IMG/VR virus record: IMGVR_UViG_3300045988_049511
Coordinates: 1-35,763 of that record
Strand: one strand, 5' to 3'
DNA from: a virus
Length of the DNA: 35,763 nt
The position numbers were made by a program, and so were the translations under genes. Positions 5,537 to 35,763 of this stretch are shown here, piece after piece; within the stretch, counting starts at the first letter, position 1; each line of letters opens with the position of its first letter. The notes beneath the pieces are model-generated. The model had not been told where the DNA came from. It worked only from the letters and a program-made list of their open reading frames with translations, and did no database searches.

Positions 5537-5621
5537 GGAGGATTGGCAGAGTGGCTGAATGCACATCACCGCTAACGAGGCAGGCGGCAACGCCTCGGGG
5601 GTTCGAATCCCTCACCCTCCG
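5537..5621 (+). tRNA. Class-II (long variable arm) tRNA-like element, Ser(GCU)-like but with a defective anticodon arm; possible pseudo-tRNA
   Basis: Acceptor GGAGGAT/ACCCTCC pairs 6 of 7 (one A-C). D arm is GCA-GAGTGGCTGAA-TGC. The variable hairpin is GGCG-GCAA-CGCC. The T arm is GGGGG-TTCGAAT-CCCTC. The anticodon arm CATCA-CCGCTAA-CGAGG pairs only 3 of 5, and position 33 is C rather than U. No CCA is encoded. Confidence 0.5.
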
Positions 5622-5751
5622 CAAACCCTTTTGGATTGGTGTTGGCAAGTAGGACGACGATGACGTATGGGATTTACGCATTAGGATATGCGGTGGCAAA
5701 GCGGAAAAGACGCTTGACTTCATCGGACAGATAACGCGAAAGCCAATGGCG

Positions 5752-5771: not shown

Positions 5772-5842
5772 TGATCCTTGGTGTAACGGTAGCACCGCAG
5801 ACTTTGGTTCTGCTGGCCCCGGTTCGAATCCGGGAGGGTCAA
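5772..5842 (+). tRNA. tRNA-Gln (anticodon UUG)
   Basis: Folded by hand. Acceptor TGATCCT/AGGGTCA (U1-A72, one G-U). D arm GTGT-AACGGTA-GCAC. Anticodon arm GCAGA-CTTTGGT-TCTGC. T arm CCCGG-TTCGAAT-CCGGG. Discriminator A. Confidence 0.9.
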
Positions 5843-5862
5843 CAACTCAACACCAACAGACT

Positions 5863-16397: not shown

Positions 16398-17600
16398 ATG
16401 ATCACGGAAGCTACATTCTCCCGCAACTTCCGTGAGAAGCTGCTGCCGGCGTGGAACCTGCATCCCCGCTACCTGGATTCGTGCGGAGGTGCCAGATCGG
16501 GGAAGACATACTCGATTCTGCAGATGCTTGTATTGAAGGCCCTGGCCGAGGCTGCCGACGGGAGCCCGGCGAAGATCACATCTGTGGTATCTGAGACTCT
16601 TCCCCACTTGAAGCGAGGAGCCATCCGTGACTTCAAGAGCATCATGCAGAGCTGGGAGATATGGAATGACCGCCAATGGAACCGAACCGACAACATCTTC
16701 ACCTTCCCCAACGGAGGCATGATCGAGTTCTTTTCGGCAGACAGCCCCGGCAAGGTGCACGGCCCGGCCCGAGACCGGCTCTTCATCAACGAGGCGCAGA
16801 ACGTCGACTACGAAACGGCCCGCCAGCTCTTCATCCGAACCCGGGACCGCATCATCATCGACTACAACCCCGTGCAGGAGTTCTGGGTGCATGAAAACAT
16901 CCAGGGACGGCCCGAGTGCGTGTCGATACATTCGACGTACAAGGACAACGATTTTTTGACTCCCGAACAGGTAGCCGAGATCGAGAGCAACAAGGGATCG
17001 GGCAACTGGTGGCGGGTGTACGGTGAGGGCAAGATCGGGCAGGCCGAAGGCGTGATCTTCGACTTCACGCAGATCGAAGCCATGCCCGAGTCGTCGGATA
17101 TGGTCGAGACATATGGCATCGACTTCGGATTCACCAACGACCCGACGGTGATTGTCCACGTCAAGGTGCACACCGGGCGAAAGGAGATCTACGTCGACCA
17201 GCTCGAATACCGAACCGGAATGCTCAACCGGGACATCATCCGAACGCTCGATGCGTACAAGGTGCCGAAGCGGACGATCCCTATCTTCGCGGATGCTGCA
17301 GAGCCCAAGAGCATCGCCGAGATTGCGCAGGCCGGATTCAACTGCAAGCCGAGCTACAAGGCGACACGCAAGGCCGAGCAGATCGCCTTCATGCAGCAGT
17401 ATAAAATGTTCATCACGAAGCGGAGCGTCGAGGGCATCAAGGAGGCCCGCAACTACTGCTGGGCGAAAGACAAGGACGGGCGCCCGCTGAACGAGCCGCA
17501 GGCATTCGCCGACCATTTCATGGATGCGATGCGATACGCTGCCTATTCACCCTTTGCCGACTTCCGAAAGTCGGGACACTACAAGATCATCAACAGATAG
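16398..17600 (+). CDS. terL: Terminase large subunit (PBSX/Terminase_3-like)
   Basis: Walker A is CGGARSGKTYS. It has the ATPase plus nuclease two-domain length and DHFMDAMRYA near the C-terminus. Confidence 0.9.
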   Translation: MITEATFSRNFREKLLPAWNLHPRYLDSCGGARSGKTYSILQMLVLKALAEAADGSPAKITSVVSETLPHLKRGAIRDFKSIMQSWEIWNDRQWNRTDNIFTFPNGGMIEFFSADSPGKVHGPARDRLFINEAQNVDYETARQLFIRTRDRIIIDYNPVQEFWVHENIQGRPECVSIHSTYKDNDFLTPEQVAEIESNKGSGNWWRVYGEGKIGQAEGVIFDFTQIEAMPESSDMVETYGIDFGFTNDPTVIVHVKVHTGRKEIYVDQLEYRTGMLNRDIIRTLDAYKVPKRTIPIFADAAEPKSIAEIAQAGFNCKPSYKATRKAEQIAFMQQYKMFITKRSVEGIKEARNYCWAKDKDGRPLNEPQAFADHFMDAMRYAAYSPFADFRKSGHYKIINR

Positions 17601-17606
17601 CAGACT

Positions 17607-18236
17607 ATGATAACCAACTACAACAGCCTCACGGTAGGCAAGTATGAGGCCCTGCTTCGAGCACGGGCCGACCACGAAGGCGATACGAACGAACTGAACC
17701 TTCACGTGCTGTCGATTCTCTCTGGCATGACCGTCGACCAGCTCCTCGATCTGAAGGTACCGGAGTTCCGGGCCATGATGGACCGGGCGGGATTCCTTTG
17801 CACGGCACCTCGGCCGTCGGAGGTAGCCAGGCAGTACCGGTTCGGGGATCTGACCCTTGTACCCGTGACCGATGTCCGGAAGATGACGGCGGCGCAGTAC
17901 ATCGACTTTCAGAATTTCTCAAACGCCGGCGAAGGTCGACAGGCGGAACTACTCTCCTGCTTCCTGGTGCCGAAGGGCATGAAGTACAACGACGGCTACG
18001 ACATCCTCGAAGTACAGCAGGCAATCCGGGATTTCATGCCGGTGACGGCTGCTTTGGGGTTGCTCGCTTTTTTTTTGAGAAGATTGCATCGGTCAACAAT
18101 CAATACCCTACGCTCTTCGGTAAAGAAGATGCCGAAGAACCCGCAGACGGCGGAGGCTATCCAGGCGACGAACCGGTTGATCCGTTCTCTGCAAAGTGGG
18201 GGTGGATTGCCAATGTCGATGCCGTTTCTGAATTGA
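17607..18236 (+). CDS. Hypothetical protein with a T9 slippery run; the -1 frame extends to 18361 (tail-assembly-chaperone-like two-product gene?)
   Basis: The zero frame gives ...LGLLAFFLRRLH... and the -1 frame gives ...FFFEKIASVNNQYPTLFGKEDAEEP...EWIRTH. The T run lies at 18068-18076. Confidence 0.65.
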   Translation: MITNYNSLTVGKYEALLRARADHEGDTNELNLHVLSILSGMTVDQLLDLKVPEFRAMMDRAGFLCTAPRPSEVARQYRFGDLTLVPVTDVRKMTAAQYIDFQNFSNAGEGRQAELLSCFLVPKGMKYNDGYDILEVQQAIRDFMPVTAALGLLAFFLRRLHRSTINTLRSSVKKMPKNPQTAEAIQATNRLIRSLQSGGGLPMSMPFLN

Positions 18237-33234: not shown

Positions 33235-33519
33235 ATGAAGCAGATTTTTGACAAGATCGTCGGCTGGCTGAACGGCATCGGGGCCGACAAGTACAAGCAC
33301 CAGGCGCTGGGGTCGGACATCGCGGCCGTCGTCCTGCTGGCGCTGGTGTGGTTCGTTCCCCAGTGGCTGGCGCTGACGGCCTCGGTCGTGGCGGTGATCG
33401 TGGCGGCTGTCGGCAAGGAAAAGGCCGACGCCAAGACGGATCTCCGCGATATCGTGGCCACCCTATGCGGAGGCGCCGTCGTGTGGCTCCCTTTCCTGAT
33501 TGCAATCCTGATTGTGTAG
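33235..33519 (+). CDS. Membrane protein (holin/antiholin candidate)
   Basis: 94 aa with about three hydrophobic helices. It is the first gene of the lysis cassette. Confidence 0.6.
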   Translation: MKQIFDKIVGWLNGIGADKYKHQALGSDIAAVVLLALVWFVPQWLALTASVVAVIVAAVGKEKADAKTDLRDIVATLCGGAVVWLPFLIAILIV

Positions 33520-34021: not shown

Positions 34022-34201
34022 ATGACAAAGACAACCAAAACCATTCTGATCGTTGCCGCCGTGCTGGTGGCTCTCGTCGTGCTGTTCAACTTCCTGCCCG
34101 GTGGTGTTCGCATCGCCTCGACGATCTCCGCCGGCGTAGGCTTCATTGCCGGCATTATCGCTAAGACGTGGTATGACCGCGAAACCAAAAAGGAGGAGTA
34201 G
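34022..34201 (+). CDS. Small two-TM protein (59 aa), below the ORF-track cutoff
   Basis: Hand translation: MTKTTKTILIVAAVLVALVVLFNFLPGGVRIASTISAGVGFIAGIIAKTWYDRETKKEE. It fills the gap between holin and lysin. Confidence 0.55.
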   Translation: MTKTTKTILIVAAVLVALVVLFNFLPGGVRIASTISAGVGFIAGIIAKTWYDRETKKEE

Positions 34202-34203
34202 CC

Positions 34204-34614
34204 ATGTCGAGAGGTCTTCGGAATAACAACCCGTTGAACATCGAGAAAACGAAGGGCGGGAATCCGTGGCAGGGGGAGATAGTGCCGTCCGCGGACAGCC
34301 GATTCGCGCAGTTTACGTCCGCAGCTTACGGCTATCGGGCGGCGTTCAAACTGCTGAACAACTACCAGCGTAACTATGGGCTTGACACAATTCGCAAGAT
34401 GATATACCGCTGGGCACCGGCCAATGAGAATCATACCGACAATTACGTGAATGTAGTATCCAACCGGTCCGGCGTGCCGGCAGACAGCCGCATAACTACT
34501 ACCAATCGTGACGTCATGGTACCTATCGTGGCTGCCATGTCGTTCGTCGAGAACGGTGTAGAGGCCAAAATGCCGGATGTGGAAGCCGGATGGAAGTTGT
34601 TCATGCAAAACTGA
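34204..34614 (+). CDS. Putative peptidoglycan hydrolase / endolysin (RNNNP-x-NI family, as I recall annotated 'structural protein P5'-like in databases)
   Basis: GLRNNNPLNIEK...NPWQGE...YRWAPANENHTDNYV. Its position after the holins supports the call. Confidence 0.55.
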   Translation: MSRGLRNNNPLNIEKTKGGNPWQGEIVPSADSRFAQFTSAAYGYRAAFKLLNNYQRNYGLDTIRKMIYRWAPANENHTDNYVNVVSNRSGVPADSRITTTNRDVMVPIVAAMSFVENGVEAKMPDVEAGWKLFMQN

Positions 34615-34619
34615 TAGCC

Positions 34620-35063
34620 ATGAGACGTATATTCTACAACAGTTGGCTGGCCAAGTGCCTGCTTTGGCCGGGATATTCCACGGCCATGCTCTTCGGCTAT
34701 ATCTGCACGAAGCGTAAGTCGAGCACCCCGCTATCGTATAAGACGAAGTAGCATGAGAGCATCCACGCCGAGCAGTACAACGAGGTCACGATGCTCGCAT
34801 TCCTGGTTGCCCTGATCCTGCAGATCCTCTTCGGCGGCGGCTGGTGGTTCGTGCCGGTTCCGGTCGTGTATTACGTGCTGTACTTCCTCGAAGCGGCGAT
34901 CACGTGGACCATTCGGTTGTGCACGAGCGGCTGGACCGCGGCGGCAGAGATGGCTTATGACAACTCGATGTTCGAGCAGGAGGCCCGGGCCGGAGAGGAT
35001 GTATCCGGGCATATCGAAACGCGGAAATTCCTCGCTTTCCTGCATTATTTCGGACGGATATGA
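34620..35063 (+). pseudogene. Membrane HExxH-motif protein interrupted by one in-frame TAG (34749-34751): pseudogene, readthrough or recoding
   Basis: 34620-34748 encodes MRRIFYNSWLAKCLLWPGYSTAMLFGYICTKRKSSTPLSYKTK. TAG follows, and the same frame continues HESIHAEQYNEVTMLAFLV... to 35063. Confidence 0.6.
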
Positions 35064-35635
35064 GCCGCTGGGAGACAACCGTGATTGCCTTGGCCGCCAC
35101 CTTCCTCGGAGGGTTGTGGCTGGGGCAATACGTCTCCCGGCCGGAGATCGTCGAGCGGGTGCGGGTCGATACGGTGTTCTACGAGCGGCCAAAGCCGTTC
35201 GCGGTGGCGGAGCGCCCGGTGGCGGTGCATGTGCCGCGGATGCTGTTCGCTCCGGCCGACACGGTGGACCGGGCGGTCGTCGTGGGCGACAGCGTGCAGA
35301 TAACGGTCACGGAGCGCACGCTGGAGTACCGCGACTCAACCTATTACGCCCGGGTGGTCGGGCCGGCCGTGGGGACGCTGGGCCCCCGGCTCGACTACTT
35401 TGAAACCTACAACAAGACGGTCGAGCGGGTGCAGCTCGTCCGTGAACCTTACGCCTGGGAACTGGGGCCCGCGATGGGGACCTGGATGACCAGGGATGGC
35501 AGCGGGATGTGGGCAGGCGCCTACGCCCGGCGAACGTTCGGCCGATTCAGCGTGTCGGCCGCCGCGGGATACGACGCCCGCAACAAAAGCGCCTTCGGCC
35601 AGGTCGAGGCCGGTATGGCGCTGTGGAGGCGGTAA
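35060..35635 (+). CDS. N-terminally anchored envelope protein, spanin-analogue candidate
   Basis: 191 aa. It has an N-terminal TM segment (TVIALAATFLGGLWLGQYV), a Gly/Ala/Tyr/Arg-rich beta-like C-terminus and an ATGA overlap. It is the last gene before the terminator. Confidence 0.6.
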   Translation: MSRWETTVIALAATFLGGLWLGQYVSRPEIVERVRVDTVFYERPKPFAVAERPVAVHVPRMLFAPADTVDRAVVVGDSVQITVTERTLEYRDSTYYARVVGPAVGTLGPRLDYFETYNKTVERVQLVREPYAWELGPAMGTWMTRDGSGMWAGAYARRTFGRFSVSAAAGYDARNKSAFGQVEAGMALWRR

Positions 35636-35763
35636 CGGTTGCATCGTTTAACTAATCATTTCGGCAATCAATCGGTATATTTGCCGAAATATAAAAGAGC
35701 GATATCCAATTTCGGCAATGCTAAAGGCAACATGCTGAAATTCAATAGTCCCGGCAGCTCAAC
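35623..35763. repeat. Right copy of the 141-bp terminal direct repeat (circular closure or terminal redundancy)
   Basis: Identical to 1-141. The last CDS (35060..35635) ends inside it. Confidence 0.97.

Follow-up and report, generated by a model that had tools for sequence, protein, structure and literature searches.

A gene for a predicted membrane protein in the lysis cassette of a phage carries one in-frame TAG codon, and this codon lies immediately before an HExxH motif. Such an arrangement might come from a nonsense mutation, from stop-codon recoding or readthrough, or from an error in the sequence. Comparison of the window (the whole stretch of 35,763 nucleotides analysed here) with related sequences points to the first of these. 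With a probability of about 0.9, as judged from these sequence comparisons, the TAG is a recent C-to-T nonsense mutation (CAG, Gln44, to TAG) in an optional lysis-cassette gene of one strain that uses the standard genetic code.

Reading frame around the TAG codon

The frame starts at ATG 34620 and ends at TGA 35061–35063, and the TAG at 34749–34751 (codon 44) is the sole in-frame stop before this TGA; the coordinates that the first-pass annotation gave for this single break were confirmed. All features described here are on the plus strand. When read through, the frame (34620–35063) encodes a 147-residue HExxH membrane protein with two predicted transmembrane (TM) segments, which belongs to PHROG 15610, an uncharacterised phage family. 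The window has the Q44* allele of this gene, as assigned from the translation, the homologues and the intact allele (P0211/P0206). The HESIH sequence (H45, E46 and H49) occupies 34752–34766, immediately 3' of the TAG. A second motif, FEQEA, is located at 34971–34985. Its residues E119 and A122 are invariant in the family and E121 is nearly so, and the motif is a candidate source of the third metal ligand.

The upstream product of the TAG allele ends at K43. The next in-frame start codon is ATG 34791 (M58), and there is no in-frame ATG, GTG or TTG between the TAG and this codon. Therefore, both possible truncated products lack the HExxH motif, as had been noticed in the first-pass annotation. 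The residual 90-residue ORF from M58 (34791–35063), which comprises the TM hairpin and the C-terminal helices, is the product that gene finders call for the TAG allele (P0204).

A single gene across the stop codon

The HMM of PHROG 15610 (labelled "protease") matches the translation across the stop: residues 11–70 align with profile positions 6–61 of 105, with an E value of 1.4e-11. A search of 5.8 billion proteins gave 55 homologues. As many as 48 of them cover 100% of the read-through sequence, with lengths of 145–157 residues, mostly 145–147. The 43- and 103-residue parts on the two sides of the TAG, which had been regarded as pieces of one membrane-embedded HExxH protein, are indeed the halves of such a protein, since the profile spans the stop and the homologues are full-length. 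The opposite case, in which the homologues would naturally be two separate genes, does not hold: more than 50 homologues are single proteins.

In the alignment, the residue at codon 44 is Gln in the nearest homologues (79–92% identity; KQHESIH), the nearest alleles having CAG, and Arg in the more distant ones (KRHESIH). A conserved stop at this codon is found in none of the homologues. Likewise, no in-frame stop is present in the HExxH gene at 18 IMG/VR loci or at one locus in a Candidatus Alistipes metagenome-assembled genome (MAG); one of these loci, L029, has the fusion-deletion allele described below. The ancestral codon at 34749–34751 is CAG.

Comparison of the TAG and CAG alleles

In two prophage loci (L007 and L008), the 444-nucleotide gene differs from that of the window by only one base: C instead of T at 34749, which makes codon 44 CAG (Gln). 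CAG is found at the position of 34749–34751 in eight loci with identical flanks of 29 and 30 nucleotides (59 nucleotides). The earlier suggestion of a fresh nonsense mutation is borne out by this single C-to-T difference, the two CAG alleles matching the window gene at every other base. A stop could arise in this gene through 16 different transitions, four of which turn CAG into TAG, and the replacement of a Gln codon by TAG is therefore unremarkable.

The TAG allele (P0204) is recorded only on the window's own JGI/IMG contig and on two Logan contigs. The latter come from two separately assembled runs, ERR1776103 and ERR1776197, whose assemblies match the window with 100% identity along 6.4 and 4.5 kb, respectively. 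Contigs with intact alleles are more numerous: 8 have the exact Gln allele (P0211/P0206), and 63 have a sister allele (P0208). These counts measure rarity across assemblies and contigs; at the assembly level the TAG is a minority variant, an outcome that had been named in advance as one that would speak against recoding. Since the allele is present in three assemblies, it persists in at least one lineage.

It should be mentioned that the window gene and the allele of two other loci (L006 and L013) differ mainly in the C-terminal half. All but one of the 27 differences are 3' of codon 70, and 20 lie within codons 93–116. This distribution suggests a recombination mosaic in the C-terminal half (34898–35012 of the window).

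Lysis cassette, genome and host

The HExxH gene is preceded directly by an endolysin gene of the phrog_873 type (34204–34614; E = 3e-47). It is followed by a DUF6808 gene (35060–35635), whose product has an N-terminal TM segment and whose ATG shares bases with the TGA of the HExxH gene, in the sequence ATGA. Genes for holin-like TM proteins are located just 5' of the endolysin and HExxH region. The lysis-cassette setting proposed in the first-pass annotation is supported by these two neighbours. In Alistipes-type phages, the gene order is always endolysin, HExxH gene and DUF6808 gene. In the assembly collection, 100 indexed blocks contain the identical endolysin. When the lysis region was compared with INPHARED phages by blastn, short endolysin matches were the only ones.

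The endolysin slot of relatives (L024, L027, L028, L030, L031 and L034; around positions 1700–2500) is occupied by three unrelated enzymes, of the phrog_873, Amidase_3 and M15-peptidase-like types, the last being judged from its sequence alone. The gene for a 59–62-residue TM protein, the HExxH gene and the DUF6808 gene stay in place while the endolysin is swapped, which amounts to modular exchange in a conserved cassette.

The window begins and ends with an exact 141-bp direct repeat (1–141 and 35623–35763), so that the assembly is circular, with a length of 35,622 bp. The genome encodes an integrase, a replication module, TerL, a tape-measure protein and the lysis cassette. Its right end adjoins bacterial genes (YajC, NusB and DUF1573) in L007–L009, L011 and L014, and the integrase gene in L010, L012, L016 and L017. 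The phage is therefore temperate, with both integrated and excised or tandem forms. The attachment-site region lies just past base 141, where the prophage copies switch to host DNA. The window assembly is circular, so that the TAG-bearing phage is still seen as an excised or replicating form; the TAG strain, being among the circular forms, still appears to replicate. A scan of genome contigs gave a single locus, in the Candidatus Alistipes MAG, and GC is about 55%. Since only one MAG locus was found, the host assignment is indirect and at the genus level: it is probably Alistipes or a related member of the Bacteroidales.

Loss of the gene in relatives

The HExxH gene is often absent from phages with an identical endolysin. 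In six loci (L009–L012, L014 and L015), a precise 440-bp deletion (34620–35059) removes the entire gene, while the endolysin is identical to that of the window. In these loci the endolysin gene directly precedes the DUF6808 gene, and the deletion lies between two ATGAG start regions. When places with the identical endolysin were read on 24 contigs, roughly 17 were deleted and 8 were intact, that is, about two thirds were without the gene. Among the contigs read, the deletion allele thus appears to be commoner than the intact gene.

Other lesions are of different kinds. A 1-nucleotide insertion causes a frameshift in L005 (around 2895), and an additional C does so in L044 (around 1435). The 5' part of the gene is replaced in L045 (1–60), and an internal replacement in L046 (around 230–290) led to loss of the HExxH segment. 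One of the two +1 frameshifts sits on a probable long-read contig, and some of these four lesions may be assembly artefacts.

A further lesion, P0004, results from a 284-nucleotide deletion at a 12-nucleotide microhomology, which joins the HExxH gene (at about codon 124) to the DUF6808 gene without a change of frame, the C-terminal two-thirds of DUF6808 being kept. The resulting 243-residue fusion is encoded in L001–L004 (10001–10732) and in L029, which represent another prophage having an Amidase_3 endolysin. This allele is widespread, occurring on 27 contigs, one of which is 1.47 Mb long.

The TAG is found in none of the other disrupted copies, whether frameshifts, the fusion deletion or replacements. 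Several N-terminally truncated database calls (P0050, P0053, P0054 and P0222) were considered as further TAG alleles and rejected, because they turned out to be frameshifts or rearrangements. The natural presence/absence variation, together with the heterogeneous lesions, indicates at the sequence level that the HExxH gene is a dispensable accessory gene. Because the losses are heterogeneous and independent, they fit a dispensable gene rather than programmed recoding.

Terminators and tRNA genes

A simple ORF model gave 54 ORFs under code 11, which cover 92% of the window; among them are long, intact genes for proteins of 1122, 734 and 589 residues. Besides the HExxH gene, 10 of these ORFs are terminated by TAG, or 11 if the truncated upstream ORF is counted. 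The TAG-terminated genes include those for the integrase, TerL, a 433-residue protein of the tail region and two proteins of the lysis cassette, the last two within 1.5 kb of the HExxH gene. One of these two encodes a 94-residue holin-like TM protein (33235–33519), whose orthologues end with TAG or TAA at the same aligned position. The other encodes a 59-residue TM protein (34022–34201), whose orthologues end with TAG or TGA. Reading TAG as Gln would extend the large terminase gene TerL (phrog_2; 16398–17600) by 211 codons. Homology revealed only one TAG-interrupted gene in the window, that at 34620–35063.

It is worth noting, with regard to gene calling, that TerL (400 residues) and the next ORF (209 residues) share one frame in 16398–18236, with the TAG plus two codons between them. 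Under code 15, gene calling would join the two in error.

Two tRNA genes are present, and the Ser(GCT)-like copy is aberrant, in agreement with what the first-pass annotation had said of the tRNA-type genes. The tRNA-Gln gene (5772–5843) has the anticodon TTG and a normal cloverleaf (58.7 bits), and is not a suppressor. The tRNA-Ser(GCT)-like gene (5537–5622) scores 32.8 bits with Rfam, just above the threshold, and its anticodon is not CTA. Position 33, universally U, is C here, and two pairs of the 5-bp anticodon stem are mismatched. Five relatives found in other samples share this odd form, and alignment with them shows that the window copy is one G short in a run of six G in the T-arm. When IMG/VR was scanned for the exact pattern of the aberrant tRNA, no match was obtained. 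This gene may be a tRNA-like element that is non-canonical or in decay. A CTA anticodon formed by a shifted loop was also considered for this gene and rejected: a sound stem is not formed in either register, and both ARAGORN and Rfam place GCT. No tRNA with a CTA anticodon was found in the window by ARAGORN or Rfam, which gave only the Ser(GCT)-like and Gln(TTG) genes. Relatives from other samples have this tRNA pair too; it is not peculiar to the TAG strain.

The sequence around the TAG was also examined. Over the 100 nucleotides that begin with the TAG, folding is no better than in shuffled sequences (z = +0.49), which gives no sign of a stimulatory RNA structure. The base after the TAG is C, as it is at six of the nine genuine TAG stops checked and in seven of the 10 other TAG-ended ORFs. 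The +4 context of the codon-44 TAG is therefore not special, because C follows most of the genuine TAG stops. In view of the terminator use, the lack of a CTA tRNA, the ordinary RNA folding and the common C context, recoding and programmed readthrough are unsupported.

Origin of the TAG codon

In the proposed mechanism, a single C-to-T transition would have turned CAG (Gln44) into TAG, truncating an accessory lysis-cassette gene in one strain of a temperate, integrase-carrying tailed phage of about 35.6 kb. Under the standard code, translation would halt after residue 43 and the HExxH motif would remain unmade. At most, reinitiation at M58 might yield the 90-residue fragment free of the motif. 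The phage would tolerate this truncation because the gene is optional; near-identical phages are fully without it.

Three other explanations have to be weighed against this mechanism. Under code 15, genome-wide or in late genes, TAG would be read as Gln and the full-length protein would be made late as a lysis-timing device. Phages of this kind are known from the gut (PMC9523058, PMC10607447), the ancestral residue at codon 44 is Gln, and the gene is in a lysis cassette. The described code 15 phages, however, have TAG in 37–41 ORFs and tRNA-Sup(CTA) genes (PMC10607447; see also PMC9523058), whereas the window has one in-frame TAG and no CTA tRNA. In addition, about ten of its genes end with TAG, TerL and two lysis genes among them, the stops of relatives alternate with TAA and TGA, and TAG is missing from codon 44 of all other homologues. 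The idea that recoding or programmed readthrough times lysis thus fails, and code 15 is left with practically no probability; on these sequence data, recoding is refuted for the genome of the window. A sequencing or assembly error, the true base being C, is also very improbable. It would involve just a single base, and the tRNA-Ser-like gene of the window is likewise off by one homopolymer base from its relatives. Nevertheless, the change at 34749 is a substitution outside any homopolymer, and the same TAG is present in the two Logan assemblies that match the window exactly.

The third explanation is a leaky allele, in which near-cognate decoding of UAG by host tRNA-Gln, possibly aided by the phage tRNA-Gln(UUG), restores some Gln. 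Gln tRNA is the natural near-cognate for UAG, and in E. coli a stop followed by C is regarded as a weaker context for termination. The phage tRNA-Gln gene is well formed, and C does follow this TAG. On the other hand, the same base follows most of the genuine TAG stops, the anticodon is UUG rather than CUG or CUA, so that wobble would be needed at two positions, and a stimulatory RNA structure was not detected. Furthermore, relatives from other samples have the same tRNA pair, and selection for the TAG is not visible. Leaky decoding is therefore judged to be unlikely. Its more specific form seems less likely still: the TAG allele would be a hypomorph in which tRNA-Gln(UUG) possibly boosts Gln insertion late, giving a trickle of active HExxH protein. 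If this were the case, lysis behaviour would be altered, and the allele would represent a one-codon precursor state toward TAG recoding.

A simple nonsense mutation thus remains the preferred explanation. The locus resembles TAG-to-Gln gut phages (crAss-like phages and phAss-1; PMC9523058, PMC10607447, PMC10879173) in that a gut Bacteroidales phage has TAG at a Gln position in a late or lysis-associated gene. It differs from them in having one TAG instead of dozens, TAG terminators throughout, no tRNA(CTA), a TAG that is unconserved in relatives, and a small (35.6 kb), temperate genome. The features of an ordinary nonsense pseudogene in a prophage are all present: one transition from the intact allele, presence/absence polymorphism, heterogeneous lesions and a rare allele. 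Nothing material separates the locus from such pseudogenes; the sole coincidence is that the lost residue, Gln, is also the residue assigned to TAG in code 15. It is an ordinary strain-level pseudogenisation (Q44*) of a dispensable gene. The main value of the locus is as a calibrated negative, because a lone TAG at a Gln codon in a lysis gene of a gut phage mimics code 15. Three cheap tests can tell such a case from recoding: how neighbouring genes terminate, which codon near-identical alleles have at the position, and whether the gene is present or absent across the population.

The HExxH protein family

The family comprises 582 clusters at 50% identity, and its members are typically 130–160 residues long. 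Across 73 diverse members, Glu46, His49, Gln52, Tyr88, Tyr113, Glu119 and Ala122 are invariant, whereas His45 (at least 90%), Tyr85, Glu91, Glu121 and Tyr131 are nearly invariant. The signature can be written as HExxHxxQ ... FExEA. This family of small two-TM proteins is widespread, and in Alistipes-type phages its repeated natural loss marks it as an optional accessory of the lysis cassette.

The AlphaFold model (AF2) of the read-through protein has a pLDDT of 84.8 and a pTM of 0.78. A small β-hairpin in the N-terminal region is followed by a helix of residues 40–71, which starts with the HExxH motif and continues as TM1. TM2 is formed by residues 80–102, and the short C-terminal helices bear the FExEA motif. 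The two long hydrophobic helices in the model support the assignment as a membrane protein.

Pfam scans of the read-through protein and the 73 members gave no consistent family, with weak matches to FA_desaturase and miscellaneous TM families; neither Peptidase_M48 nor M56 was matched at E ≤ 1. A profile search of PDB sequences gave nothing significant, the best match being Myomaker (E = 0.069), and no peptidase. With Foldseek, the model had no match in the PDB at E ≤ 0.001 (the best E value was 4), and its matches in BFVD were solely uncharacterised phage proteins. An ORF of phage csAssE-Sib shares the HExxH motif and 32% identity over 98% of the length. Its depositors' label, "periplasmic metallopeptidase", is computational, as is the PHROG label "protease".

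The protein resembles gluzincins (M48 Ste24/HtpX and M56 BlaR1) and "minigluzincins" in the position of HExxH at the start of a helix beside TM helices, in its small size and in the conserved downstream helix bearing Glu, which is FExEA here. It differs from gluzincins in lacking a match to Pfam M48 or M56, to PDB sequences and to PDB folds. The name "zinc peptidase" is thus suggested by motifs only. From these likenesses, the intact protein might be a membrane-anchored, gluzincin-like Zn-dependent hydrolase, with the HExxH residues and the Glu of FExEA as metal ligands. As an optional accessory of the lysis cassette, it may modulate lysis or act on a membrane substrate. The N-terminal 44 residues contain many Lys and Arg, which suggests, by the positive-inside rule, that the active site is probably on the cytoplasmic face of the membrane.
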